Shown here in pieces: positions 346 to 64,000 of a stretch of DNA of 64,000 bases. Within the stretch, counting starts at the first letter, position 1. Each line of letters opens with the position of its first letter. A program made the translations under genes and the position numbers. This DNA comes from Deltaproteobacteria bacterium (GTDB lineage Bacteria > Desulfobacterota > DSM-4660 > Desulfatiglandales > HGW-15). The DNA lies in the NCBI GenBank assembly GCA_019310525.1, contig JAFDEE010000016.1, positions 3,394 to 67,393 on the forward strand, read 5' to 3'. The notes under the pieces were generated by a model, which saw nothing but the letters and a program-made list of their open reading frames with translations, searched no databases and was not told the DNA's origin.

Positions 346-1344
346 ATGCGATTTCTGGATGAAGCGGTCGTGACCGTAAGATCGGGCAACGGGGGAAGGG
401 GTTGTGTCAGTTTTCGAAAGGAGAAATACATCCCCCGGGGAGGTCCCGACGGAGGAGACGGGGGAGATGGCGGAAGCATTAAGGTAAGGGCATCCTCCAG
501 GCTCCGTACCCTTATACAGTACAACTCCAGAAAATTTTTTAAGGCCCCCAACGGCGCCCCCGGAAGGGGAAAAAACCAGACAGGTAAAAACGGCCGGGAC
601 ATCGTGCTGGAGGTCCCCACGGGAACCGTCGTGGCGGATCAGGAGACAGGAGAGGTGTTGGCCGACCTGGTTCGCGACGGAGAGGAATTTTTCGTTCTCC
701 CGGGCGGCAGGGGAGGGAAAGGAAACCAGCATTTCGCCACACCGACCCAGAGGGCGCCGCGGTTCGCACAACCTGGTGAACCGGGCCGGGAAATGCGGCT
801 CCGGTTTTCCCTGAAATCCCTGGCCGATATCGGCATCATCGGCCTGCCGAACGCCGGGAAATCCACCCTCCTCTCACGACTTACTACAGCCCATCCACGA
901 ATCGACGACTATCCCTTCTCAACCCTTGTTCCGAATCTCGGCGTATTGGAACTGGAAGACCACGCCCCGCTCACCATTGCCGACATTCCAGGCCTGATCG
1001 AGGGGGCCAGCCAAGGACGGGGGCTCGGCCACCGGTTTTTAAAACACATCGAGAGGACCCAGCTCCTTCTCCACGTGATCGACATCTCCGCCCATTCTCC
1101 TGACGGCATCCTGGAAAGTTTCATGATCTTGAAACATGAACTGGAAGCCTACGATCCGGCCTTACTCCGGAAGGCCCAGATGGTGTTGATCAACAAGATC
1201 GATCTCCTCGGATCCTGCCGCCGTGACCTCCTGGAAAGGACGGGGAAGGCCCTTTCCCGGGCGGGATTCGAATTCCTGGCGATCTCCGCCCTGACCGGAG
1301 AGGGTATCGATGCCCTCAAGGAAATTCTTTCGAAGAAATTCTGA
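346..1344 (+). CDS. obg: GTPase Obg/CgtA
   Basis: 332 aa. Obg-fold N-terminus MRFLDEAVVTVRSGNGGRGCVSFRKEKY, a glycine-rich GGPDGGDGGDGG segment, P-loop GLPNAGKST, DIPGLIEGA and NKID GTPase motifs. Confidence 0.95.
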   Translation: MRFLDEAVVTVRSGNGGRGCVSFRKEKYIPRGGPDGGDGGDGGSIKVRASSRLRTLIQYNSRKFFKAPNGAPGRGKNQTGKNGRDIVLEVPTGTVVADQETGEVLADLVRDGEEFFVLPGGRGGKGNQHFATPTQRAPRFAQPGEPGREMRLRFSLKSLADIGIIGLPNAGKSTLLSRLTTAHPRIDDYPFSTLVPNLGVLELEDHAPLTIADIPGLIEGASQGRGLGHRFLKHIERTQLLLHVIDISAHSPDGILESFMILKHELEAYDPALLRKAQMVLINKIDLLGSCRRDLLERTGKALSRAGFEFLAISALTGEGIDALKEILSKKF

Positions 1345-4077: not shown

Positions 4078-5043
4078 CTAAGGGGTAAGCTGCGGATAGG
4101 ACTTGAGAGTCTTTTCGTGTTTCAGCCGGGCGGCTTTTATCAAGTCGGCCCGTGCCTTTTCCTCTTCGCCCATGGCTTCGTAGACCTTGGCCCTATTATA
4201 AAGGATATCTCCATCCCCGGGCGCCAATTCCAGGGCCTTGGTGTAGTCCTGAAGAGCGAGGTCTAGTTTCTTCATTTCGAAATAGGCGCTTCCCCGGTTG
4301 CAATACACGTCCGCGTTGCGAGGCATGAGCCTTGCGGCCTCCGTAAAATCCTTCACCGCCTGCTCGTGTTTTCCCAGCCTGGCTAATACCAATCCTCTGT
4401 TGAAGTAAGCGTCGGCAAAGTTCTTGTCCAACTCGATGGCCTTTGTGTAATCAGCCAAGGCCTCCTGAAAATTGCCTCGGTAGGCATTAAGCCACCCCCG
4501 GTCATAGTGGGCGTCGGCACGGTTGGGGTTCACCTTCAAAAGGCTTTCGACCTTTTTCATCTCAAAGAGGAAATCAATCTCTTTTTCCCCTTTTGAAGCC
4601 GCAGCCCCAGTTGAAACCTGAGGTCCGGCCGTTGCGGTTTGATCTTTCACCGTCCCCTGCTGAGGAGTTCCCTGCTTGGAGGGCGGTGGAAGGGGCCGGG
4701 GAGCCCTTTTCACTGACCTTTGCACCACCTTGGGCCCGCCGGGAGAAACGGCACCCGGGATAAGCCCGGCGATCCCACTGAAGGAGTGGCCGATAAAGAC
4801 AACCACTGCGGCCTGGAGGAGAAGCGAGAGCACGAATGACGCGGTCCAAACCGTCATGTACTTGGTCAGATTGTAACTGCGGTGTTTCTTCCACCCCCAG
4901 ACAAAGGTATAGATCCCGCAGATGATGCCGAAGATGCCCTTCAGTATCCCTTCGTTCTTGAAAAGCTTCACGAGCACGATGATAAACATGATAAAGCTCA
5001 CGAACGAAAGCAGTGCAAAGACCGAGGCCAGGATATTGAGCAT
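4078..5043 (-). CDS. membrane-anchored TPR-repeat protein
   Basis: Hydrophobic N-terminal helices (MLNILASVFALLSFVSFIMFIIVLV...), a Pro/Gln-rich linker, then several TPR units (AHYDRGWLNAYRGNFQEALADYTKAIELD...). The internal ATG at 5043 is preceded by GAGGAGG, so the long ORF-track N-terminal extension is rejected. Confidence 0.7.
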   Translation of the reverse strand: MLNILASVFALLSFVSFIMFIIVLVKLFKNEGILKGIFGIICGIYTFVWGWKKHRSYNLTKYMTVWTASFVLSLLLQAAVVVFIGHSFSGIAGLIPGAVSPGGPKVVQRSVKRAPRPLPPPSKQGTPQQGTVKDQTATAGPQVSTGAAASKGEKEIDFLFEMKKVESLLKVNPNRADAHYDRGWLNAYRGNFQEALADYTKAIELDKNFADAYFNRGLVLARLGKHEQAVKDFTEAARLMPRNADVYCNRGSAYFEMKKLDLALQDYTKALELAPGDGDILYNRAKVYEAMGEEEKARADLIKAARLKHEKTLKSYPQLTP

Positions 5044-5053
5044 GGCTTCCTCC

Positions 5054-5473
5054 TCAGAAATTGGATACTGCCGGAAACAAATGTGATTGGAGAAGGTCCG
5101 CCCGCAGACACTCCACCACCCTAAAACCCCAGTAGCAGAGAAGAGCGGAAAAAAACAGAAGGACGATTCCAGTCCGGCTTTCAAGGACTGCGACCCATCT
5201 CACCACCGAGGTGTAATGGGATCCGGGAACAAGACACAAGAGCCCTACGAGACAGCCCCCCGCCAGGAAAAGGGGAGAAAAGGCATGGCTTGATATTGCG
5301 GCCCCCCACTCCCCGTGGAGGAGATGTCCGATTCCCCGGGTCAGGCCGCATCCGGGGCAGGGGACCCCCAGGAAGGTCTTGACCGGGCAGGTCCACCCCG
5401 GGATCCCCAGGAAATGAAGCAAAACCTGGAAAACGCCAACGGCCAAAAACAGCACGGTGATTCGGCGGTCCAT
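5054..5473 (-). CDS. DUF2752-like small membrane protein
   Basis: The CPVKTFLGVPCPGCGLTRG motif followed by hydrophobic helices matches the DUF2752 pattern as I recall it. The start is uncertain (candidates 5473, 5557, 5590) and none has a clear SD. Confidence 0.55.
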   Translation of the reverse strand: MDRRITVLFLAVGVFQVLLHFLGIPGWTCPVKTFLGVPCPGCGLTRGIGHLLHGEWGAAISSHAFSPLFLAGGCLVGLLCLVPGSHYTSVVRWVAVLESRTGIVLLFFSALLCYWGFRVVECLRADLLQSHLFPAVSNF

Positions 5474-5909
5474 GAGGACCGGCGCCAGCAGGGGAGGGAA
5501 GGATCCCCTGGACGTCTGCTCAAGCCCCGCTGGATTCACCCGATAAAATCTTCTCATGCCCACATGATTCACGCCAGCCGTTGCCTCCACTACGGGAATC
5601 GGAATCGGGCCGGTTGCGACCGGGTGATCTTACAATATCAACTCTTTCGGGATATTGAAAGCTATATTTGTCCCGGGCCCAGGGGCCCGGGAGGAAAACC
5701 GGAATCCCATTCAGGAAGTAAAATGGAACCAGGTAGACACAAAATTTCCATTTTCCGGGGACTTGAAATAAAAACCATTTGGGTTTATATAGGGTCCGTC
5801 TTGACCTTTCATCTTCTATCCCGTTGAAGTACCTCTCGGAAACGAAAACGTACAACCAGCTTCACCAAAACATAACGGCAGTCTCTATTGGCAATGAAAG
5901 GAATCGTGC

Positions 5910-8836: not shown

Positions 8837-9805
8837 ATGGGAGATATCTTCGTTGTTGTGGAACACAGGCAGGGAGTGATTCGGGAAATCACCCATGAGA
8901 TGCTCTGGAAGGCCGGGGAACTGGGTCGAGCACTCTCCCGGAAGGTGTCGGCCGTTTTGTTTTGCCATGATGGGGCCCGGATGATCGAGGAGATCAGGGA
9001 TCGGGCGGACCGGATTCTCCTGGTGGAAAGCGACGCTTTTAAAAATTTCAGCAGCGACCTTTACAAGGAACTCCTGGCACGTCTCATTGCCGAGCATGCC
9101 CCCTTTCTCACCCTGATGGGCCATACTGCCTGGGGCATGGATCTTGCCCCGGCCCTCAGCGTCAAGAGTGGACTCCCCCTTGCCACGGATTGCATGGATA
9201 TTCTCTGGGAGGGGGACCGTCTTAAGGCGGTCAGGCAGGTCTATTCCGGCAAGCTTTTCTCCAAGGTTTCTTTCAAGGAGGCCCCTGGATACCTTGCAAC
9301 CATAAGGGCGGGGGCCTTTCCACAGGAGAAGTCAGGGGAGCGTTCGGCCGAGGTACAGGAGATCGATCTTCCGGCCGACTTACCCGCTGAACGGAGGCGG
9401 TTCGTTGAATTCGTGGATACGGGCGCGGGAAAAGTGGATATCTCTCAGGCCGACCTCCTTATCTCCGTGGGCCGGGGGATTGGAGAAGAGGAAAACATCG
9501 GGAAGATCAAGGAACTGGCCGACCGCCTGGGAGGAGTGTTGGCCTGTTCCCGTCCTGTGGTGGACAAGAACTGGCTCCCCAAGTACCACCAGGTGGGGAC
9601 CTCCGGAAAATCCGTGAAGCCCAAGGTCTACCTCGCCCTCGGAATCAGCGGGGCCTTCCAGCATGTGGCGGGCATAAGCGGCGCCGGCACCGTGATCGCC
9701 GTAAACAAGGACAAAAAGGCCCCTATTTTCAGGGTCGCCCACTACGGGGTGGTGGACGACCTGTTCAAGGTGGCCGATGCCCTGATGGAAAAAATCGGAG
9801 GATAA
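8837..9805 (+). CDS. etfA: electron transfer flavoprotein, alpha subunit
   Basis: 322 aa. The C-terminal FAD-binding segment ACSRPVVDKNWLPKYHQVGTSGKSVKPKVYLALGISGAFQHVAGI is typical of ETF-alpha. Confidence 0.9.
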   Translation: MGDIFVVVEHRQGVIREITHEMLWKAGELGRALSRKVSAVLFCHDGARMIEEIRDRADRILLVESDAFKNFSSDLYKELLARLIAEHAPFLTLMGHTAWGMDLAPALSVKSGLPLATDCMDILWEGDRLKAVRQVYSGKLFSKVSFKEAPGYLATIRAGAFPQEKSGERSAEVQEIDLPADLPAERRRFVEFVDTGAGKVDISQADLLISVGRGIGEEENIGKIKELADRLGGVLACSRPVVDKNWLPKYHQVGTSGKSVKPKVYLALGISGAFQHVAGISGAGTVIAVNKDKKAPIFRVAHYGVVDDLFKVADALMEKIGG

Positions 9806-9822
9806 TAAGGTCCGATCTCCTC

Positions 9823-10863
9823 TCAGGAAAAGAGGATGATTTCTTTCAGGGAGCGTTTCGGGACGTGATGAATGCCTGAGGTGTCTCTCCAGTAACGGAT
9901 GTCTCCATCGGGCCCCAGGGGCTCGATCACCACGGTTTCCTTGGGTTTCCCGAGGGCAATGACGTGGAGGATCTCGTAGCGGTCAGGAATGGATAGCTCT
10001 CTTCGGAGGACTTTCCGCTCCACGGATCCCACGATACACCCCCCGAGACCCATGCTGGCTGCCCCCAGCAGGATGCTCTGGCTGGCGATCCCGTGGTCGC
10101 ACCCGAAGGTTGTTGTGATCTCCCTGTCCCCCAGCACGATGATGTAGGCTGCGGGCCTCTCCCCCTCGCCGGGGCCTTTCCAGTCCTCCAAATAGGCCGC
10201 CCAGGAGAGGGTCGAGAAGATCGTCTCGTTTTTGGTTTTTTCGTTGGAAAGGATATACTTGAGGGGCTGGAGATTCCCTGCGGAGGCCGAACAGCGTGCC
10301 AGGTCCACCAGGAACCTCAGGACATCCAGGGAGACCGGCGCTCCTTCCTCGTATCTCCTGATACTTCGCGTCTTTCGAACAAGGTCTTTGATTCGGTATT
10401 CATCCATATCTTTTCCTCCTTGCACTGCCTGCCGGCCACCTTTCCGGGTACATCCACCGGAATCCTTTTGAAGGGCCTCGATAACCGTCCGGTCAGGAGG
10501 CGGGAAGCGGTACAAAGGAAGGTCTTCCGGGAAAACCCACCTGAACTCCTGGCCCTCCCGGGAGACAGGACGTCCCTTCATACCGGTGCAATGAAAAACG
10601 TGGAGCGTAATCTTTCGGGTCTCGTATTCGTGCTCTACGGTCAGGAAATGGGCCCCCGGCTGGACCTCGATCCCCAACTCCTCCCGGATCTCCCGCTTGA
10701 GGCACTCGCGAAGCCCTTCTCCCGGCTCCTGCTTTCCCCCCGGAAATTCCCAGAATCCGGCCATATGAAAACCCGGGGGACGCCTGGCGATCAGGAGCCG
10801 CCCTTCCTTCCAAATCAGGCCGGCAGTGACGAATAAATGGGGTTTAGGGGTTCCGGGTTTCAT
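9823..10863 (-). CDS. NUDIX hydrolase (MutT-like) fused to a nitroreductase-family domain
   Basis: The N-terminal ~135 aa carry the Nudix box GGKQEPGEGLRECLKREIREELG. The C-terminal ~195 aa (from MDEYRIKDLVRKTRSIRRY...) resemble the NAD(P)H nitroreductase family. No stop codon separates the two parts. An internal ATG at 10407 has its own AAGGAGG SD. Confidence 0.75.
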   Translation of the reverse strand: MKPGTPKPHLFVTAGLIWKEGRLLIARRPPGFHMAGFWEFPGGKQEPGEGLRECLKREIREELGIEVQPGAHFLTVEHEYETRKITLHVFHCTGMKGRPVSREGQEFRWVFPEDLPLYRFPPPDRTVIEALQKDSGGCTRKGGRQAVQGGKDMDEYRIKDLVRKTRSIRRYEEGAPVSLDVLRFLVDLARCSASAGNLQPLKYILSNEKTKNETIFSTLSWAAYLEDWKGPGEGERPAAYIIVLGDREITTTFGCDHGIASQSILLGAASMGLGGCIVGSVERKVLRRELSIPDRYEILHVIALGKPKETVVIEPLGPDGDIRYWRDTSGIHHVPKRSLKEIILFS

Positions 10864-54832: not shown

Positions 54833-54993
54833 AAATTTTCTTGCCTGATTCTTGCTCAACGAAAGGCTGTTTTACGTCTCTTTCGCGATGAAACTGGTAT
54901 GAATGAATACTTTTTATCACAGCAAACGATATGGGCTCCCTGCGGCAGGCAAACAGGGGAGTCCCTGTGTGTTTCCCGGTGGGTGTGTTAAAG

Positions 54994-57150
54994 ATGAATG
55001 TTCAAAGCCCTCTTTTTGAGCAGATTTCCACCCTGAAAAATCTCCCTTCCCTTCCCCATATCCTCTTGAAGCTTTTTGAGGCCTGCAACCGGGAAGACAG
55101 CAGCCTCAAGGAGATCTCGGGAATCGTCGGCAAGGACCCATCCCTGAGCGCAAGAATGCTCAGGTTGGTCAATTCCGCCTATTTCGGATTGTCGCAAAAA
55201 ATAGACGATATCGGGCAGGCCGTCGTTCTCGTGGGGATCAGGGGCGTGAAAAATATGGCCGTCTGCGCTTGCGTCTACGAGGCCTTCAGGGGAACCCGGG
55301 GAAACGGAATCTTCAATCTCAAACGGTTCTGGTGGCACTCCCTGAGATGCGCTTTCCTGGCCAGGGAGATTTCCGAAAGAGTGCATTACGGCCATCCTGA
55401 CGAAGCCTTTATGTCAGGCCTGCTCCATGACATGGGCAAGCTGGTCCTATGGGTCAATTTCAGGGAAGCATACGAGGATCTCCTGAAAAGGTCCAGCGGC
55501 CGGCTCAATCTCCTACTGGAAGGGGAAGCCCGCTTGGGGGCGACCCATTGTGAAGTCGGGGCCTGGCTTCTCCACAAGTGGAATCTTCAATCTCTCGTCT
55601 CTGACCCTGTGCTTTACCACCACGAGAGTCCGGGGCGGATCATGCATTCCCTTCCCCTGGTTCAGATTGTCTATGTGGCCAATGCTCTGTGCCAGGAGTC
55701 CGGATCAGTGTCGGCGGAAGGTGAAAAGATGGCGCGGATGATCCTGGGTTTGAGTGGAGAAGAAATCGGGGAATTTCTCGCCCATTCGGACCGGGAGGCC
55801 CTGGACGTGGCCCGTTCCCTCGAGATAGAGATCGACACTTCGGAGGATCCGGGGACGGAATCCGGAGAGAAAGACCTGAAGGTGCGTAAGGCCCTTGTCC
55901 AGGAAGTCAAAAATGTTTCTCTTCTCGTCGGCACTCTCCAGGCTTACCTGGAAGTCGATGATCTGAGTGGCATCCTGGATGTGGCATCACAGGGATTGGA
56001 AATCCTTTTTGACGTGAAAAGTGCGCTGTTTTTCCTCCTGGATCCTGAAAAGGATTTCCTCATCGGGTATCTTCGCAGCAGCGAGGGCGGGTTCGTTTCA
56101 AGCCATGACCTCTCGGTTTCGTTGAAGATGAAGGACAGCCTGCCGGTGAAGAGCCTGGAAGAAGGTCGGGCGATGGATTCTTTCAGCGCACAGGTGCACT
56201 CCCCTCCCATGATCCTGGACGAGCAAGTGGTTCGGCTGCTGGGAAAGGAGGGGATCTTCTGCCATCCCATGGTGGTCCAGGGAGAATCCGTGGGGGTTCT
56301 GGTCCTGGGAGTGGATCGAAGTGAATTATCCCGGCTTACCAGTCAAACCGATCTTTTGAACGTATTCGTGCAAAAGGGAGCCCTTGCCCTCAGGCTGGAG
56401 TACTTGAGACGCAGCCGCCTGAAGACCATCCAGCGCGAGCGTATCGATGCTTCGACTGACCTGGCGCGCAAGATCATCCATGAAGTGAACAACCCCCTTG
56501 GCATTATCAAGAATTATCTCAAGATCCTGGGAATCAAGCTGGCCGAGCAGGATATAGCCCAGGAGGAGATCCGGATCATCAACGAGGAGATCGATCGGGT
56601 ATCCCAGCTTCTCCAGGAACTCTCCGGACTCACCCGGGAGAAGCCCCACCAGAGGGAAAATGTGGAGATCAACGCTTTGCTTCTGGATATTCTCAAGCTC
56701 GCGAGGGAATCCCTCCTGAAAAATTCCAAGATTGAGCTCCAACTCGACCTGGAGCGGTCCCTGCCTAAGGTCGTGGCCGAAAAGAACGGACTCAAGCAGG
56801 TTTTCATCAACCTGATCAAGAACGCAGCCGAGGCCATGAAGGATGGAGGAAACCTTCGCATACAGACCCGGCATATACAGGGAGCCGGCGGAGGGCCTGG
56901 ATCAGGGAAAGGAGCTGCCGACAAGGGATGCGTGGAGGTGACCTTCCGGGACAACGGCCCCGGCATACCCGAGGAGATCCGGGAAAAGCTGTTTGATCCT
57001 TATGTCGGAACCAAGGGCGAGGGGCATTCGGGTCTGGGTCTTTCCGTTGCCCACAACATCATTAAGTCCTTCAGGGGCAGCATCACTTGCGAGAGTGAAA
57101 CGGGTGCCGGAACAGTATTCCGAATCGAGTTGCCCGTTTCGAGTGATTAG
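54994..57150 (+). CDS. HDOD - GAF - histidine kinase
   Basis: N-terminal HDOD pattern (LPSLPHILLKLFEAC...SPSLSARMLRLVNSAYFGL...HDMGKLV). A GAF-like middle region. H-box IIHEVNNPLGIIKNY and ATPase boxes (INLIKNAAEAM, GLGLSVA). The start could be 54931 or 54994. Confidence 0.8.
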   Translation: MNVQSPLFEQISTLKNLPSLPHILLKLFEACNREDSSLKEISGIVGKDPSLSARMLRLVNSAYFGLSQKIDDIGQAVVLVGIRGVKNMAVCACVYEAFRGTRGNGIFNLKRFWWHSLRCAFLAREISERVHYGHPDEAFMSGLLHDMGKLVLWVNFREAYEDLLKRSSGRLNLLLEGEARLGATHCEVGAWLLHKWNLQSLVSDPVLYHHESPGRIMHSLPLVQIVYVANALCQESGSVSAEGEKMARMILGLSGEEIGEFLAHSDREALDVARSLEIEIDTSEDPGTESGEKDLKVRKALVQEVKNVSLLVGTLQAYLEVDDLSGILDVASQGLEILFDVKSALFFLLDPEKDFLIGYLRSSEGGFVSSHDLSVSLKMKDSLPVKSLEEGRAMDSFSAQVHSPPMILDEQVVRLLGKEGIFCHPMVVQGESVGVLVLGVDRSELSRLTSQTDLLNVFVQKGALALRLEYLRRSRLKTIQRERIDASTDLARKIIHEVNNPLGIIKNYLKILGIKLAEQDIAQEEIRIINEEIDRVSQLLQELSGLTREKPHQRENVEINALLLDILKLARESLLKNSKIELQLDLERSLPKVVAEKNGLKQVFINLIKNAAEAMKDGGNLRIQTRHIQGAGGGPGSGKGAADKGCVEVTFRDNGPGIPEEIREKLFDPYVGTKGEGHSGLGLSVAHNIIKSFRGSITCESETGAGTVFRIELPVSSD

Positions 57151-57176
57151 TACAACCTTTGTGTAGGGAGTCCCAA

Positions 57177-59240
57177 ATGTCACGAGCACCTGATATCCTG
57201 GTGGTTGATGACGAACCCCGGATGTGCGAGAGTCTGGCCTATCTCCTCAATACCCGGGAGTACCGTGTTTCCACGGCCCATTGCGGCCGCGATGCTATCG
57301 ATCTCTTGTCCAGGGGCGAGTTTGACCTGGCCCTCCTGGATATCCACTTGCCGGACATGATGGGCCATGAAATCATGGACCACATCAATGCCCATTGTCC
57401 TGAAACCGTGGTTATCGTCATAACGGGAAATGCCAATCTGGATTCGGCTGTGGCGGCATTAAGAAGAGGAGCCTATGATTACCTCCGCAAGCCCTTTGAA
57501 TTCGACGAGCTTCTCAGGACGGTCGAAAACGCCCTCAATCAAAAACGCCTGAAACGCGAGAAGGACAGCATCCACAAGCGGCTGAATATCTCCGAGGAAC
57601 GGTATCGTTACCTCGTGCAGAATTCCCCCGACATCATTTATACCCTGGATCCCCGGGGGAACTTCACCTTTGTAAGTGATGCCGTGGAGCGTCTCCTCGG
57701 ATTCAAGAGCGATCAACTGGTAGGCAAACATTACAGCACCATTGTATACGAAGAGGACCTGGACAAGGCGAAGTGGTTTTTCAATGAGAGGAGAACGGGT
57801 CCTCGGGCTTCCAGCGGAATCGAGTTGAGGTTAAAGGTCGCGGAAAGCGAGGATTCCAGAGATTGCGAGATCCGGCACCTCACCGTCGAGCTGAAATCAA
57901 CGGGGATCTATGACCGTCCGCCCAAGGAGGAAGGCAAACGGTATCTCGGAACCCACGGGGTCATACGCGACATCAGTGAGCGGAAGAGACTTCAGGCCCA
58001 GCTCCAACACGCCGAGCGGATGAAGGCCCTGGGGACTCTCTCGGGGGGAATCGCTCATGACTTCAACAACCTGCTCATGGGTATCCAGGGAAACATATCC
58101 TTGATGTTGATGGATACCGATGCGGAGCATCCCCATTACGTGCGCCTGCGAAACATCGAGGAATATGTGAAGAGCGGCGCCGACCTGACGAGACAACTCC
58201 TCGGGTTCGCAAGGGGGGGGAAGTATCAGGTCAAGGCCGCGAACCTCAACGAATTGATCCGGAAGAGTTCAGAGATGTTCGGCAGGACCAGGAAAGAGAT
58301 CCGGATCCACAGGGAACTGCAGGAGGACCTCTGGCCGGTGGAGATCGATGAGGGTCAGATCGAACAGGTGCTTCTGAATCTGTATGTCAATGCCTGGCAC
58401 GCCATGCCCCAAGGGGGGGATCTCTATCTGGAGACCCGAAACCAGAGAATCACGGAGGATGAGGCCCTGACGCACATGCTGGAAAAAGGCCCCTATGTCA
58501 GGGTTTCCGTTCGGGATACGGGCGTGGGGATGGACGAGGCCACCCAGAAGAGGATCTTTGAACCCTTTTTCACCACCAAAGAGATGGGGCGGGGCTCGGG
58601 ACTCGGTCTTGCTTCCGCCTACGGAATCATCCAGAACCACGACGGGATTATCGGTGTCCAGAGTGAAAAAGGCAAGGGTTCGGAGTTCTACATCTTTCTC
58701 CCGGCGTCGAAAAAGGCCGTTATGGAAGAAGAAGAACCCGAGAAAAGGGTGTTGAATGGAACGGAGACGGTTCTCCTTGTGGACGATGAGGAAATGATCC
58801 TCGAGGTAGGACAGGCGATGCTGGAAAAACTCGGCTACAGGGTCATAACGGCGCGAAGCGGAATGGAGGCGGTCGAGATCCTGAAGGGTGCGGATTCGTC
58901 AGGCGATATGGCGGTGGGAAGCAGGGGAGCTTCCGGCTCCAGTCGGGGCGGCGTTTCCCCGGACCTGGTCATCCTGGACATGATCATGCCTGGAATGGGG
59001 GGAGGAGAGACCTTTGATCGCCTGAAGGCCATTAATCCGGACATCAAGGTGCTCCTTTCAAGCGGCTACAGCGTGGACGGCCAGGCGAGCAAAATCCTTG
59101 AACGGGGCTGTAACGGCTTTATCCAGAAACCTTTCAATATAAATGAGCTTTCTGAAAAGATGAGAGAAATCCTGAAAGAAGACAATCCCCTCCCAAGGGC
59201 CCGTAGGGGTGAGGAGACCATGGGCTTTCATATGAATTGA
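57177..59240 (+). CDS. hybrid kinase: REC - PAS - HisKA - HATPase_c - REC
   Basis: ATG at 57177 follows AGGGAG. N-terminal receiver (ILVVDDEP...LALLDIHLPDMMG...KP) and PAS (EERYRYLVQNSPDIIYTLD). H-box AHDFNNLLMGIQG and G-box GSGLGLASA. The C-terminal receiver has a Gly/Ser-rich insertion. Confidence 0.85.
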   Translation: MSRAPDILVVDDEPRMCESLAYLLNTREYRVSTAHCGRDAIDLLSRGEFDLALLDIHLPDMMGHEIMDHINAHCPETVVIVITGNANLDSAVAALRRGAYDYLRKPFEFDELLRTVENALNQKRLKREKDSIHKRLNISEERYRYLVQNSPDIIYTLDPRGNFTFVSDAVERLLGFKSDQLVGKHYSTIVYEEDLDKAKWFFNERRTGPRASSGIELRLKVAESEDSRDCEIRHLTVELKSTGIYDRPPKEEGKRYLGTHGVIRDISERKRLQAQLQHAERMKALGTLSGGIAHDFNNLLMGIQGNISLMLMDTDAEHPHYVRLRNIEEYVKSGADLTRQLLGFARGGKYQVKAANLNELIRKSSEMFGRTRKEIRIHRELQEDLWPVEIDEGQIEQVLLNLYVNAWHAMPQGGDLYLETRNQRITEDEALTHMLEKGPYVRVSVRDTGVGMDEATQKRIFEPFFTTKEMGRGSGLGLASAYGIIQNHDGIIGVQSEKGKGSEFYIFLPASKKAVMEEEEPEKRVLNGTETVLLVDDEEMILEVGQAMLEKLGYRVITARSGMEAVEILKGADSSGDMAVGSRGASGSSRGGVSPDLVILDMIMPGMGGGETFDRLKAINPDIKVLLSSGYSVDGQASKILERGCNGFIQKPFNINELSEKMREILKEDNPLPRARRGEETMGFHMN

Positions 59241-59289
59241 ACCCTGCAACCGTATTGACTTGCCTCGGATTTTGTATAATATGGTATCA

Positions 59290-59655
59290 ACATACTTCCA
59301 GGTGCCCCACTGGGGGCTTAATAGGGAACCCCGTTAGAATCGGGGACGGGCCCGCCGCTGTGATCGGGGACGAAAACCGCGGTCCGCATTTCACAGGTTC
59401 TCCGGAACCGCTGAAATGAGGACAAAAGCCACTGTCCGGAATGCACACACGGATGAACCCTTTGAAAACGTTCAATTTTGTTCAAGGTCAAGGAAGACGA
59501 AAATTTTAACCACAGGAATACATTGAGTATTTCGAGGATTAAAATTTGAGTCTGACGCAGAAATTGGGCAAAAGGGGGCGTTTTCCAAAGGGTTCGAGGA
59601 TGGGAAGGCGCGGGGAGTAGGAAGAACCGTAAGTCAGAAGACCTGCCTGGAAGAA
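59290..59655 (+). promoter_or_regulatory. cobalamin (B12) riboswitch 1, unusually long
   Basis: Conserved elements in the correct order: GGUGCC, AAUAGGGAA (59320-59328), GUUAGAAUC, CGGGCCCGCCGCUGU, GCCACUG (59428-59434), GGGAAGGC (59601-59608), and the B12 box AGUCAGAAGACCUGCC (59632-59647). A 141-nt element is nested between GCCACUG and GGGAAGGC. Confidence 0.75.
59455..59595 (+). repeat. AT-rich 141-nt element with 16/17-nt terminal inverted repeats, copy R (nested in riboswitch 1)
   Basis: GAACCCTTTGAAAACG (59455-59470) is the reverse complement of CGTTTTCCAAAGGGTTC (59579-59595), apart from one extra C. The interior is AT-rich, and its left ~80 nt are homologous to 33905-34010. Confidence 0.7.
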
Positions 59656-59715
59656 AAGAGGTAGCCCTCGCGGAACAGGGCTTGCCGACCAAGATCTCGA
59701 GGATAAAAACGGGAT

Positions 59716-59756
59716 ATCCCCGGATCGATGCCTATGTCGATCCGGGGATTTTTTTT
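59716..59756 (+). terminator. rho-independent terminator (expression platform of riboswitch 1)
   Basis: A 13-bp perfect stem ATCCCCGGATCGA / TCGATCCGGGGAT with an 8-nt loop, followed by a run of about 8 T. Confidence 0.85.
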
Positions 59757-59917
59757 CTACACGGGTTGCGTCTCATCAAGTCCCTTCTTTCCAGCCCTGT
59801 TCCGACCTGGGAGCCCTCTGCCCCGAAATGGCATTTGATTTTGCCGGTTTCGGAAAACTGACTTATATTTATTTATAACTAAGTGATTTTATTCGATTAA
59901 TTGGGAGGGGATGATCG

Positions 59918-60331
59918 ATGGCCTGCCATGAAGGAATCAAGAAGGCGGTACGTTTTATAAGGAATCATTTCAGGGAGCCGTTGACCCTTGATCAGGTGGC
60001 GATGGAGAGCGGCATGAGCAAATATCACTTTGCAAGGGTCTTCAAGGTTTCTACAGGCATGACTTTCAAGGAATACCACAACCGGAGACGGATCGAGGAG
60101 GCGAAGGCCCTGTTGTGTAATCGTACGATGCGGGTGACTGACGTGTGTTATGAGGTGGGATTCAATGACATCTCTTATTTTGACCGGGTTTTCAGGCGTC
60201 TGGTAGGCGTCAACCCCACTTCATATAAGAGGCGTCCGGAAACAACATCATCCGATTTTTCTTCTCCCGCAAAGGAAAAAGGCAATTTTGTGCAAATAAA
60301 AGGCAATATCATCCAAGCATTTCAAAAATAA
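59918..60331 (+). CDS. stand-alone AraC/XylS-type HTH DNA-binding protein (MarA/SoxS-sized)
   Basis: 137 aa comprising only the dual-HTH AraC C-terminal module (LTLDQVAMESGMSKYHFARVFKVSTGMTFKEYHNRRRIEEAKALL...VTDVCYEVGFNDISYFDRVFRRLVGVNPTSYKRR). There is no ligand or dimerisation domain. GGGAGGGG SD. Confidence 0.8.
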   Translation: MACHEGIKKAVRFIRNHFREPLTLDQVAMESGMSKYHFARVFKVSTGMTFKEYHNRRRIEEAKALLCNRTMRVTDVCYEVGFNDISYFDRVFRRLVGVNPTSYKRRPETTSSDFSSPAKEKGNFVQIKGNIIQAFQK

Positions 60332-60344
60332 AATTCGATATAGT

Positions 60345-60525
60345 CCACGCAATTCTTCAGAGCAGGAGAAAGGGAAAGCGGTGAGAGGCCGCTGCTGCCC
60401 CGCAACTGTATTCCCGATTCTCGAACAATGAGAATCCGTGTCCAGGCCATTAGAGCCACTGTTCCGTAAAGGTTGGAATGGGAAGGCGGTCGGGACCGGG
60501 AAAGCCAGGAAACCTTGCCTGTTCT
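60345..60525 (+). promoter_or_regulatory. cobalamin (B12) riboswitch 2, canonical size
   Basis: AAAGGGAAAGCGGUGAGAGGCCGCUGCUGCCCCGCAACUGU, GCCACUG (60455-60461), GGGAAGGC (60480-60487), and B12 box AGCCAGGAAACCUUGCC (60503-60519). Confidence 0.85.
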
Positions 60526-60542
60526 TCTTTTGCCGAGGCCCA

Positions 60543-60589: not shown

Positions 60590-60740
60590 GAAGCCGCCAC
60601 TCCCGCCGTGTTTTTCCCTTACCGCACCCTCCGCTTCGCTGACCCTTGGAAAATCCAGAGTCGTTCCGGTTCCTCTGGAATAAGAAGAGAAGTCACCAGT
60701 CGATTAAGCCATGAACAAAAAAAGAGAGAGGAGAAATGTC

Positions 60741-61541
60741 ATGCCAAGAAAGATCTGTTTAATGCTCTTTTTATGGATGTTAGCCATGTTGAGTAGCTTG
60801 CCTTCAACCGTCGTCCTGGCAGGGCCCTATGCCCCCGCCGCCGGCCAGCCCGGATCCACGGCCATTCACATGGACAGTTCGGACTTCGTGGGTTGGGCAA
60901 CGGGCTGGATTGATTACTTACCGGGAGAAGAGGTGGATTCGAAATGGCAGACTCCAGAGAAGGCCCTGGGGAAGGCTGTGGGCACCTCCTATGATATCGT
61001 AACCCTCGGGCGGGGTGGGCGGATCACAATGACCTTCGATACCCCCATTGCAGACGGGGAGGGTTGGGATTTCGCAGTTTTCGAGAATTCCTTCAACGAT
61101 ACCTTCCTGGAATTGGGTTACGTGGAGGTTTCCTCGAACGGCGTGGATTTCTTCCGGTTCCCGAACGATTCCCTCACGCCTGACCCGGTTGGAGGGTTCG
61201 GGGCGCTGGACCCCACGAATATCACCGGGTTGGCCGGCAAGTACCGCCAGGGCTACGGAACACCGTTTGACCTCGGAGTCCTTGATGGTGTGGATCCCCT
61301 GCTTGATGTCCACAATGTGGGCTGGGTACGGATCATCGATATCATAGGGGATGGGACATACCTGGATACATCAGGGGATATCATCTACGACCCTTATCCT
61401 ACAGTGGGAAGCGCTGGTTTTGATCTGGATGCCGTGGGAGTGATAAACGCCGCCCCCGTGCCTCTCCCCGGGACCGCCTTTTTGCTGGGAAGCGGCTTGT
61501 TCGGTCTCCTGGGAATGAGAAGAAGGTTTCGTTCTCGATGA
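60741..61541 (+). CDS. PEP-CTERM-anchored secreted protein of unknown function
   Basis: ATG at 60741 follows GAGGAG, and a signal peptide is present ([23 protein letters not shown]). The C-terminal sorting signal [27 protein letters not shown] has the PEP-CTERM architecture (P-rich motif, TM helix, Arg cluster). Confidence 0.75.
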
Positions 61542-61593: not shown

Positions 61594-62472
61594 ATGAGAA
61601 GACTTGTCTTTTATTTATTCATGTTATCCATGTTATCCATTTTACTGCCGTTTCAGACCCATGCGGCCGTGGCTACTTTTGACGACAATCCGCTTGCCCC
61701 CAACAGCCATTGGGGAGGTGCCGGTTCCACAGAGACCGGCTTTGTCAGCGGAGATGCCTACTTCCCGCACCATGCTGACACATACTCCTGGCACGGCTTC
61801 GTCTATTCCAACGAGACCGATACCACGACACCGGGATACACCAACCAGTTCAGCGCCATTACCGGTGGAGGAGTATACGGTTCTTCCAATTACGGAGTGG
61901 GCTACATCCCCCTGGACTGGCAGAATGGAACCTATGACCCGGTTCCACAGACCCTGAGCTTCGGCGCCTCCTCGGGGGAGGACTACAACACCGTCATTTC
62001 AGGGGCCTACTTCACCAATACCACCTATGCATATCTTTCCATGAGGGACGGGGATTCCTTTGCAAAGAAATTCGGTGGATCCACAGGGGATGATCCTGAC
62101 TGGTTCAAGCTGATCATTAAAGGGATCGACGAAAACGGGGACTATACCGGAACCTTGGAGTTTTATCTTGCGGATTTCCGGTTTGAAGACGACTCCCAGG
62201 ATTACATCGTGGATGACTGGACCTGGGTGGACCTCTCCGGCCTGGGTGCTGTTATCGGGCTGGAATTCAGCATCGATTCTTCGGACAAAGGACAGTGGGG
62301 AATAAACACACCCGCCTACTTTGCAATAGACGATCTTAACGGCGTACCTCCTTCTCCTGTCCCCCTGCCTGCTTCTCTGTGGTTGCTGGGCTCCGGTCTC
62401 CTTGGCTTGATCGGTGTAAGGAGACGCAGCCTGAAAGAGCCCGGAAAAACCGGCAACCCGTTGAACCGGTAA
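61594..62472 (+). CDS. DUF4465-like secreted protein with PEP-CTERM anchor
   Basis: Signal peptide. ATFDDNPLAPNSHWGG...SWHGFVYSNETDTTTPGYTNQFSAITGGGVYGSSNYGVGY matches the DUF4465 pattern I recall. The C-terminal VPLPASLWLLGSGLLGLIGVRRR is a PEP-CTERM signal. Confidence 0.7.
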   Translation: MRRLVFYLFMLSMLSILLPFQTHAAVATFDDNPLAPNSHWGGAGSTETGFVSGDAYFPHHADTYSWHGFVYSNETDTTTPGYTNQFSAITGGGVYGSSNYGVGYIPLDWQNGTYDPVPQTLSFGASSGEDYNTVISGAYFTNTTYAYLSMRDGDSFAKKFGGSTGDDPDWFKLIIKGIDENGDYTGTLEFYLADFRFEDDSQDYIVDDWTWVDLSGLGAVIGLEFSIDSSDKGQWGINTPAYFAIDDLNGVPPSPVPLPASLWLLGSGLLGLIGVRRRSLKEPGKTGNPLNR

Positions 62473-62676: not shown

Positions 62677-64000
62677 ATGAAGCACTCTCGAAACCTCTGT
62701 GTAATTCTGGCGTGCCTTTTTTCTTTTTTCCTCATGCAGGCACTTGATACTCCACTGGTATCTTTTGCACATGCTGAAGAAGAGACACCGGATTCGAAGG
62801 AGGTTCAGGCCGTCGATCCCCATCCCCGCCCCCGTTTTGAACTGGAGGAAGTCATCGTCATGGCGGCGGGTTTGGAGGAGGAAATCAAGAAGATCCCTAA
62901 GAATGTCACCGTCATCACAGAGGAAGATATCGCCCAGGCTCCCAGTAATAATCTGGTGGATCTGCTCGCAAGGGAAGCAGGCGTCGTGATCCGAAGTTCC
63001 TTCGGGCATGATAAGATAGCCGGTGTTGACATCCGTGGTATGGGGGACACCTATGTCAGCAACGTTATCGTCATGGTGGACGGATACAGGCTGAACCCCC
63101 CTGACCTAGCGGGCCCAGACTTCTCTTCCATCTCTCTCGATCAGGTGGAAAAGATCGAGATCATCAGGGGGGCTGGGTCTGTGGTATACGGGGACGGCGC
63201 CGTCGGGGGAGTAATAAACATCATCACAAAAAAAGGGAAGAAAAAACCTCAACTCCGCTTATATTCTTCTTATGGAAGTTACGATACCTTTGACGGAAGA
63301 GCATCCTGGAGGGGAATGTTCAAAAGCGTTTACTTCAATGTGAATGCCAATTACTACGGTTCGGATGGATACAGGGACAACGGGTTCTTCCGGAAAAAAG
63401 GGGGAGGCATGAACCTGGACTACGATTTGGGAGAGAGAATAACACTTTCCCTTCGTGCCTCAACACACCGTGACTCTTACGGCCTTCCCGCATACGTGAA
63501 CAAGGATGACATCGATTCCAGGGAGAAGAGGACCCTCACCTTTCGGCCCGACGATTCGGGTGATACGAGGGATGACCGTCTCATGGCGGGGTTTGAGATC
63601 GATCTCGGTGACTGGGGGACCCTGGAGATCCACAGGGGATATCGGTTCCGGGATAACTTCTATCTAATGGGGTATACACCGCTTCTGAGCAGGGCGGAAC
63701 AGACGGACCATATAAATGAAAATACCAGGCTTTTTGACCTGGGGTATTCAAAGGAATATGAGCTTTTCAAGAGGTCGAACACTCTTCGTGTCGGGCTCGA
63801 TCATTTCAAGACAGAGTATTTCAGGGAAGAGAATTCAAGGAATCAGAGAAAGAACAGTGAGGTGAAAACCCTCGGGTTCTTTATCACCAATCGGATGGAC
63901 CTCTCCCATGGTCTAAGCCTGCATTTGGGTTGCCGGCGCAACACTTTTAAGGGCGTGTTCCGAAACGACCAACATGTCAATTTCGGGGGGAAGCGGATCT
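62677..64000 (+). CDS. TonB-dependent receptor (5' partial; runs off the window), BtuB-like by context
   Basis: This ORF is not in the track because it is open to the window end. Signal peptide MKHSRNLCVILACLFSFFLMQALD. Plug-domain motifs EEVIVMAAG, VTVITEEDIAQAPSNNLVDLL, DIRGMG and IEIIRGAGSVVYGDGAVGGVINIITKKG. No stop codon occurs in 441 codons. Confidence 0.85.
   Translation, partial: MKHSRNLCVILACLFSFFLMQALDTPLVSFAHAEEETPDSKEVQAVDPHPRPRFELEEVIVMAAGLEEEIKKIPKNVTVITEEDIAQAPSNNLVDLLAREAGVVIRSSFGHDKIAGVDIRGMGDTYVSNVIVMVDGYRLNPPDLAGPDFSSISLDQVEKIEIIRGAGSVVYGDGAVGGVINIITKKGKKKPQLRLYSSYGSYDTFDGRASWRGMFKSVYFNVNANYYGSDGYRDNGFFRKKGGGMNLDYDLGERITLSLRASTHRDSYGLPAYVNKDDIDSREKRTLTFRPDDSGDTRDDRLMAGFEIDLGDWGTLEIHRGYRFRDNFYLMGYTPLLSRAEQTDHINENTRLFDLGYSKEYELFKRSNTLRVGLDHFKTEYFREENSRNQRKNSEVKTLGFFITNRMDLSHGLSLHLGCRRNTFKGVFRNDQHVNFGGKRI

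Follow-up and report, generated by a model that had tools for sequence, protein, structure and literature searches.

We analyzed a 64,000-nucleotide stretch of contig JAFDEE010000016.1 from a Deltaproteobacteria bacterium of the Desulfobacterota (hereafter the window), in which a cobalamin riboswitch (riboswitch 1; aptamer of about 360 nt at 59295–59653, plus strand) lies upstream of a gene on the same strand (59918–60331) encoding a stand-alone AraC-type helix-turn-helix (HTH) protein. Comparison with related loci makes it highly probable that riboswitch and HTH gene are coupled in cis as a conserved feature of the protein family. For the arrangement as a whole, we favor with moderate confidence a model in which riboswitch 1 gates an HTH activator that acts at a box-dependent promoter, promoter P2. 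Riboswitch 1 would control transcription of the HTH gene through a conserved terminator, with the RNA serving as the ligand sensor of a transcription factor that has no sensor of its own.

Conserved pairing of a cobalamin riboswitch with an HTH-only gene

A cobalamin aptamer or its expression platform was found upstream, and on the same strand, of HTH-only homologs (45–67% identity) at about 15 of 19 distinct loci, whereas no cobalamin riboswitch was found near more distant AraC proteins at any of 26 control loci. Complete matches to the Rfam cobalamin model RF00174 precede the HTH gene in loci L004, L005 (= L093), L006/7, L012, L013, L016, L017, L018, L095, and L096, and the upstream match in L008 is truncated where the contig ends. 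A short upstream stretch carries the aptamer 3′ end and/or the same platform and terminator in L092 (67% identity, the closest relative), L098, and L011; the tally also counts the characteristic GAGGAU-terminator platform where a contig end removes the aptamer. L014 retains a 5′ aptamer remnant fused ahead of the HTH gene. In L005, L008, L012, L016, and L017, the start codon lies only about 10–35 nt past the terminator U-tract, which leaves no room for an independent promoter and implies that transcription reaches the gene by read-through only. An earlier first-pass annotation of this DNA had suggested that the riboswitch could serve as sensor for a single-domain AraC regulator; the significant RF00174 match, the conserved adjacency, and the tight spacing in five relatives all support that suggestion, and the adjacency on which it depended is kept in the family and missing from the controls.

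The HTH protein itself corresponds to what had been described at 59918, a MarA/SoxS-sized product of 137 aa with AraC HTH domains only. Pfam recognizes HTH_18 (8.7e-24, residues 28–106) and HTH_AraC (9.2e-20, in two stretches) and no further domain; the HTH module begins at about residue 7, and the protein has no N-terminal ligand-binding or dimerisation domain. Its top sequence matches in the PDB include Rob (6e-13), SoxS (1e-12), RamA (1e-11), and MarA (9e-9). It fails the NCBIfam equivalog cutoffs for SoxS (61.8 versus 174), RamA (58.2 versus 180), and MarA (41–42 versus 202–250), and its best named hidden Markov model, PocR, scores 81.2 bits against a cutoff of 500 and covers the DNA-binding domain only (profile positions 190–290 of 296). 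The architecture is that of MarA, SoxS, and RamA, but by the profile scores the protein is no ortholog of theirs. Members of the close family are HTH-only proteins of 106–169 aa, 47–60% identical over the aligned region, and are confined to Desulfobacterota-type metagenome-assembled genomes (MAGs) and metagenome contigs. One family member, in L018 (2015–2812), is a 265-aa fusion of a cyclic-nucleotide-monophosphate-binding domain with the AraC HTH, and it too has a cobalamin riboswitch upstream (1699–1890).

In the window, the Rfam scan matched RF00174 at 59283–59453 with 37.7 bits (gathering score 31.5; E = 5.5e-06), so that the covariance-model search proposed in the first-pass annotation is significant. 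The 37.7-bit alignment misplaces the 3′ half of the model into 59374–59453. In a permissive local scan, the 3′ half matches well at about 59596–59664, B12 box included, and this true 3′ half carries GGGAAGGC at 59602–59609. The low score is explained by two lineage-specific insertions that split the alignment. The B12 box, AGUCAGAAGACCUGCC at 59632–59647, matches the model consensus in the second local alignment and is invariant across orthologs. A second local match at 59468–59664 (17 bits) was considered as a separate tandem aptamer and rejected, as it consists of the 3′ half of riboswitch 1 plus an insert.

The minimum-free-energy (MFE) fold of 59290–59760 gives a canonical aptamer with helices P1 (59295–59303 paired with 59645–59653), P2, and P5 and the GCCACUG/GGGAAGGC helix. 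Aligned with ten orthologous aptamers, riboswitch 1 keeps every column that is invariant across all eleven, and it contains the conserved core of AGGGAA, GCCCGCCGCUGU, GCCACUG, GGGAAGGC, the B12 box, and the closing helix P1. Alignment and fold thus bear out the core B12-aptamer elements and the box position noted earlier, and we take riboswitch 1 to be a class-I (adenosylcobalamin-type) cobalamin riboswitch. A consensus scan places its promoter, promoter P1, at 59255–59282, with a TTGACT −35 and a TATAAT/TAATAT −10; the TTGACt/a −35 is kept upstream of the orthologous riboswitches in L004, L005, L006, L012, L013, L095, and L096.

Both insertions lie in the aptamer periphery. The smaller is an extra 42-nt hairpin at 59381–59423, recognized as an inverted repeat and missing from all ten orthologous aptamers. 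The larger is a palindromic element of 141 nt (59455–59595), likewise missing from the orthologs, which sits within a lineage-specific block of about 150 nt after GCCACUG. Its GC content is 0.39 against 0.58 for the remaining aptamer; alone it folds at −60.6 kcal/mol (z = −10.7), and in the MFE fold it extends as a separate long hairpin out of the terminal loop at the end of the GCCACUG/GGGAAGGC helix. A copy with about 81% identity over about 130 nt occurs in L017 (about 885–1015, minus strand), in a different Desulfobacterales MAG, at an unrelated position and on the opposite strand. The element has no Rfam match and, with 3 or fewer mismatches allowed, no other copy anywhere in the 64 kb of the window, and its flanks, GGATG...GAGGATG, are at most suggestive of a target-site duplication. 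It looks like a miniature inverted-repeat transposable element (MITE)-like or repetitive extragenic palindromic (REP)-like sequence that landed in a peripheral loop, and like a repeat of about 140 nt that is apparently undescribed. It is present in contigs from three samples (L001–L003, the population of the window itself), and when 59455–59602 is removed in silico, the fold yields a compact GCCACUG-UCCGG...CCGGAUGG-AAGGC hairpin. Riboswitch 1 offers a natural experiment on the tolerance of cobalamin aptamers for insertions at their periphery.

Downstream of the aptamer, the expression platform comprises hairpin H1 (59663–59682; AGCCCU-CGCGGAAC-AGGGCU, loop consensus CGYGGA), a candidate antiterminator 5′ arm (GAUCUCGAGGAU, 59693–59704), and an intrinsic terminator (59716–59756). 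The terminator arms, 59716–59728 and 59737–59749, form 13 perfect pairs followed by eight T residues, as the first-pass annotation had stated. The platform is homologous across loci, with H1 followed by GAGGAUAAAAA and then by AUCCCCGG...CCGGGGAU and a U-run. In the aligned orthologous platforms, the terminator stem is paired in 88% of cells and its covariation reaches 0.418, compared with 0.209 for shuffled alignments, with none of 500 shuffles as high; the stem is maintained by compensatory changes. The candidate antiterminator (59693–59704 with 59716–59726) formed in seven of eight loci folded at the decision point, the exception being L095. For this pairing, 72% of cells are paired and covariation is 0.231 versus 0.167 shuffled (7 of 500 as high), with one invariant A·C mismatch. 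By-eye comparison of L5, GCCACUG, and CCCGCCGC across orthologs showed no consistent or covarying partner for an L5–L13 kissing loop between the aptamer and the H1 loop CGYGGA.

Coupling is less tight in the window than in its relatives, given the interrupted aptamer and a 160-nt spacer (59757–59917) that may hold a promoter. The distance from terminator to gene is 10–50 nt in the relatives versus 160 nt here, and among the loci compared, similarity to the spacer outside the window was found only in the contigs of its own population (L001–L003). The spacer contains a ribosome-binding site, GGGAGGGG, at 59903–59910 before the HTH gene, and a candidate internal promoter (TTGCCG-17-TATATT, 59841–59869) that had been noted in the first-pass annotation. 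The sequence is indeed present and matches the consensus at 9 of 12 positions, but such matches show no enrichment in this region over shuffled sequence (3 found versus 1.6 ± 1.2). Two further features were observed in the spacer: a perfect 12-nt inverted copy (59793–59804) of half of H1 (59671–59682), and, beside it, a C/U-rich stretch at 59779–59788 that pairs with the HTH ribosome-binding site (59903–59912) in the MFE fold. These features could be an extra translational layer or a rearrangement scar.

Direct repeats, a predicted promoter, and the downstream operons

At the end of the HTH gene lie two 17-bp direct repeats with the consensus aaAGCAAtATaGTCCAA, AAGGCAATTTTGTGCAA at 60279–60295 and AAGGCAATATCATCCAA at 60300–60316, exactly 21 bp apart. 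In the window, the pair falls inside the non-conserved C-terminal tail of the HTH open reading frame (ORF), and in the relatives it follows the stop codon, which indicates conservation at the DNA level. A position weight matrix (PWM) was built from eight sites in the window, L004, L005, and L006. Beyond these training loci, it detected pairs or triplets with 21-bp phasing at or just past the HTH stop in L008, L012, L013, L014, L015, L016, L092, and L094. In total, 12 of 19 family loci (8 outside the training set) carry such pairs or triplets versus none of 146 control loci (686 kb, both strands), and the pair in the window is the only one in its 64 kb. L011 has one strong single box. Within each box, conservation falls into two blocks (GCAA ... 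GTCCAA) separated by about one helical turn, the layout expected, on sequence, for one dual-HTH monomer. A scan of 59100–59930 found no box-like site of at least 6 bits, giving no indication of autoregulation there.

A TA-rich −10-like hexamer lies 21–22 nt past the proximal box in all 13 of 13 loci, with no −35 hexamer in front of it. In the window, this is TATAGT at 60339–60344, which, by its distance to the proximal box, defines the predicted promoter P2 with a start near 60351. Promoters of the P2 type lack a −35, whereas TTGACt/a is retained in those ahead of riboswitch 1. A layout of tandem direct repeats on one helix face, with the proximal one abutting the −35 position, is typical of AraC/XylS/MarA-type activator-dependent promoters, and the missing −35 in all 13 loci is what would be expected for activator dependence. 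The HTH protein would bind the two repeats (60279–60316), probably as monomers, next to the position of the missing −35.

Just beyond promoter P2 lies a second cobalamin riboswitch (riboswitch 2, 60336–60530; RF00174, 73.8 bits), whose real helix P1 pairs about 60359–60366 with 60519–60526, just downstream of the predicted start. Three plus-strand genes follow. The first (60711–61541) encodes a surface protein with a PEP-CTERM tail, the only part that Pfam/NCBIfam models match; it belongs to an unnamed family found together with DUF4465. The second (61594–62472) encodes a DUF4465 protein (BtuJ-type beta-jelly-roll; 5.2e-60) with a VPLPA/PEP-CTERM anchor. The third (62677–64000) runs off the window after 441 open codons and encodes a BtuB-like TonB-dependent receptor (TonB-B12, TIGR01779, 2.8e-31, partial). 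DUF4465 domains have been experimentally shown to bind B12 (PMC13398666). The same uptake-type layout is found in L005, L006/7, L013, L014, L015, L092, and L094. By contrast, in L004, L008–L010, and L011 the cassette heads a Flp/Tad pilus operon (flp-tadE-rcpC-secretin-ATPase) with no second riboswitch, which suggests that pilus operons are the target in these relatives; the HTH locus of L098 adjoins prepilin peptidase and TadE genes. The first-pass annotation had proposed that B12 level is coupled to a transcriptional regulon rather than directly to transport genes. The regulon part is supported by these data, but the best-supported target is the neighboring B12-uptake operon, which has its own riboswitch.

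Several further observations concern these loci. The protein at 60711–61541 is 39% identical to one at L018 3623–4423, and this surface family of about 270 aa, in its window and L018 copies, has no Pfam domain besides the PEP-CTERM tail. ORFs of similar size without a Pfam domain lie at the equivalent position in L005 (6809–7636) and L014 (1998–2900) and are putative further members. Its place beside DUF4465 in riboswitch-controlled loci makes the family a candidate new B12-scavenging component. In L001 (8760–10739), gene calling splits the receptor into three ORFs (Plug, 109 aa, barrel), whereas the window frame is open for all 441 codons; this may reflect a frameshift or an assembly difference between samples. 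A cobalamin riboswitch followed within about 100–200 nt by a c-di-GMP-I-type riboswitch (RF03167 or RF01051) occurs in L005 (5449–5882; = L093 2931–3364), L013 (2910–3408), and L018 (2986–3411), a recurring layout that precedes operons for DUF4465 and PEP-CTERM surface proteins; the window has no c-di-GMP riboswitch match.

L006/L007 carries four cobalamin aptamers within 6 kb (4228–5780 and 9675–9864). Copy a, ahead of the HTH gene, and copy c, ahead of the TonB receptor, are near-identical, including the platform, and copy b (4709–4835) is partial; the near-identity points to a recent riboswitch duplication around the HTH gene. L004 has three boxes with 21-bp phasing on its minus strand (4452–4510), directed toward thyX and a gene for a formate/nitrite transporter; a −10-like TAGAAT comes about 20 nt downstream of them. 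The leader there, which extends to about 4330, has no aptamer but includes a GGAGAUGAAAAACGGCAUCUC hairpin similar to the platform helix GAGGAU...AUCCCC. A second minus-strand box pair in L004 (2829/2850) was not counted, as it has no −10 at the expected distance. Just upstream of the cassette, the window (54931–59240) encodes an HDOD-HD histidine kinase and a hybrid receiver-PAS-kinase-receiver protein, and L005 has similar HDOD and PAS signaling genes upstream on the opposite strand.

Direction of control and competing explanations

Under the proposed circuit, when B12 is scarce, transcripts from promoter P1 would read through the terminator and the HTH protein would be made, with the GAUCUCGAGGAU segment probably pairing with the terminator 5′ arm as antiterminator. 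The bound HTH protein would activate transcription of riboswitch 2 and the B12-scavenging operon behind it (PEP-CTERM protein, DUF4465 binder, BtuB-like receptor). Riboswitch 2 would then sense B12 again, which would make the arrangement a coherent feed-forward double lock. Both arms of the loop carry cobalamin riboswitches, near-identical in L006, and the arm from transcription factor to target is predicted. In related genomes, the same riboswitch–HTH–box cassette would drive Flp/Tad pilus operons without a second riboswitch. We infer a B12-OFF sign for riboswitch 1 because in L006 a near-identical aptamer and platform directly precede a TonB-dependent, BtuB-like receptor, and because cobalamin riboswitches are usually OFF switches; to our knowledge, every cobalamin riboswitch described is one.

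Several points weigh against this model. Seven family loci have no box pair (L011, L017, L018, L095, L096, L097, and L098), and three of the 19 (L015, L094, and L097) have no upstream riboswitch. The pairing of the HTH protein with the boxes is suggested by co-localisation and promoter geometry. Ligand binding by the window aptamer is putative, given the 141-nt mobile-type element within it and its score of only 37.7 bits. On the RNA side, folding revealed no route by which ligand binding would disable the candidate antiterminator, and a naive helix chain (H1 or the 3′ strand of helix P1 / CGAGG / AUCCCC / terminator) could give ON logic. Finally, no terminator lies between the HTH stop codon (60331) and riboswitch 2, and co-transcription could explain some of the linkage.

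The insertion and the spacer bear on whether riboswitch 1 still works in the window. The MITE-like insertion might have inactivated it, leaving the terminator as a constitutive or leaky attenuator and the HTH gene under a spacer promoter of its own, independent of B12. The low Rfam score with its split alignment, the mobile-type element within the aptamer, and the lineage-specific 160-nt spacer, with its weak 9/12 promoter match parting terminator from gene, all point this way, and together spacer and insertion make B12-independent HTH expression a real possibility in the window, though an unlikely one. Set against it, the insertion sits at the periphery, in a terminal loop, and forms a fold of its own; the helix GCCACUG/GGGAAGGC that closes this loop is intact, and so are all invariant core positions, helix P1, and the platform. 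The identical arrangement recurs in contigs from three samples, and the spacer promoter match is no better than chance. The favored model supposes that the interrupted aptamer still functions. The wiring might also be as proposed with the sign reversed, either through an ON riboswitch or through repression of promoter P2 by the HTH protein, so that B12 excess yields a repressor that shuts uptake and pilus promoters. In helix-chain analysis, the GAGGAU-AUCCCC antiterminator can still form with H1 and helix P1 locked, and a free helix P1 3′ strand can sequester GAGGAU in L004-type leaders; an operator overlapping the −35 position could, moreover, occlude RNA polymerase. We nevertheless consider this quite unlikely. 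We give the ON-switch version a low probability because this same platform lies directly ahead of the BtuB-like receptor in L006, the OFF behavior of the cobalamin riboswitches known to us speaks against it, and for activation rather than repression there are the −35-less promoters in all 13 loci and the activator function of the nearest solved relatives, Rob, SoxS, and RamA.

Two further explanations would dissolve the link between the HTH protein and its presumed partners. The HTH gene could be a passenger, with riboswitches 1 and 2 acting in series on one long transcript from promoter P1 and the repeats not serving as operator for the HTH protein. Besides the uninterrupted stretch up to riboswitch 2, the presence of a second riboswitch after the HTH gene in most uptake-type loci would fit such an arrangement. 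It is rendered very unlikely by the Flp/Tad operons, which follow the same HTH–box cassette with no second riboswitch, by the fixed phasing of the repeats and their fixed distance to the −10 in 13 loci, and by the restriction of the repeats to loci that carry the HTH gene; a DNA-binding protein without a predicted target would also be odd. Alternatively, riboswitch and terminator could form a stand-alone small RNA of the EutX/Rli55 type, with short and long forms acting in trans and the adjacent HTH gene incidental. A strong terminator followed by a long spacer in the window, L004, L013, L095, and L096 is compatible with this idea, but the close same-strand start codons in several relatives and an adjacency conserved across 45–67% protein identity leave it scarcely credible.

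Relation to known systems and biological significance

MarA, SoxS, and RamA recognize asymmetric sites roughly 20 bp long (GCA ... about 10 bp ... YYAA) beside or overlapping the −35. Like them, the HTH protein consists of a dual-HTH module only (about 110–130 aa in those proteins), a design in which activity is set by abundance rather than by a ligand domain. There, abundance is controlled by a repressor (MarR) or a redox sensor (SoxR), whereas here a cobalamin riboswitch would take that role; the boxes here are tandem direct repeats with 21-bp phasing, and B12 uptake and Tad pili are predicted as targets in place of efflux or oxidative stress. In XylS/AraC-type promoters, two half-operators arranged as direct repeats are spaced by about 21 bp; the proximal half-operator adjoins or overlaps the −35 position, where no consensus hexamer is present. 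Promoter P2 has the same repeat spacing and −35-less layout, but the proteins of that type dimerise through an N-terminal domain that the HTH protein lacks.

Indirect routes from B12 riboswitches to regulators are known: in Listeria, the antisense RNA AspocR leads to PocR, and the EutX/Rli55 sponge RNAs provide another. A cobalamin riboswitch likewise sets the level or activity of a regulator in these cases, and PocR is an AraC-family protein. Those systems work through an antisense or sponge RNA in trans, whereas the element here is a cis element, part of the 5′ leader of the mRNA that encodes the regulator, and the HTH protein lacks the PocR sensor domain. The Vc2 c-di-GMP riboswitch upstream of tfoY does act in cis from the leader of a regulator gene, but it differs in ligand, riboswitch class, and protein family, and we know of no operator and second-riboswitch architecture for Vc2–tfoY. 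The PocR link is mentioned in PMC11124144.

A protein-based parallel is provided by FoxR, PchR, YbtA, and AlcR, which are Fur-controlled AraC-type activators of TonB-dependent uptake (PMC545781). In those systems too, a starvation sensor de-represses an AraC-type activator of a receptor operon that is also under the primary sensor, a coherent feed-forward design; here, the primary sensor would be an RNA and not Fur, the activator has no effector domain, and the nutrient is cobalamin. Riboswitch 2 with the DUF4465/TonB-receptor operon is an ordinary example of canonical btuB and B12-scavenging riboswitches (BtuB/BtuG/BtuH/BtuJ, PMC13398666), and riboswitch 1 shares their aptamer class and terminator platform. 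It departs from them in directly preceding a transcription factor gene and in its 141-nt aptamer insertion. E. coli GadX, also of the AraC family, binds the btuB promoter region (PMC3050690). A full-text literature search, with many subscription papers outside its scope, found neither a description of a cobalamin riboswitch immediately ahead of an AraC-type or HTH-only regulator nor one of a link between B12 and Tad pili. The components are all of known kinds, and what appears to be new is the wiring, in which a stand-alone activator has a riboswitch for its sensor, acts through a conserved operator, and is followed by a second riboswitch.

Riboswitches are usually described as controlling the transport or metabolic genes that adjoin them downstream. 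A conserved riboswitch gating a sensor-less transcription factor with an identifiable operator would extend the reach of an RNA sensor to distant promoters such as those of Tad pili, and the combination of two riboswitches, a small activator, and a box-dependent promoter offers a testable circuit for mixed RNA–protein feed-forward logic. More tentatively, and with less than even confidence, we suggest that in this Desulfobacterota lineage the riboswitch has become a detachable sensing 'domain' of a MarA-like activator, at the head of a B12-starvation regulon comprising riboswitch-gated scavenging operons and, in sister genomes, Tad pili and possibly thyX. If this is true, attachment to surfaces, for instance to those of B12-producing partners, would be under the control of vitamin starvation, and a shortage of B12 may regulate adhesion in anaerobic communities reliant on cobamide cross-feeding.

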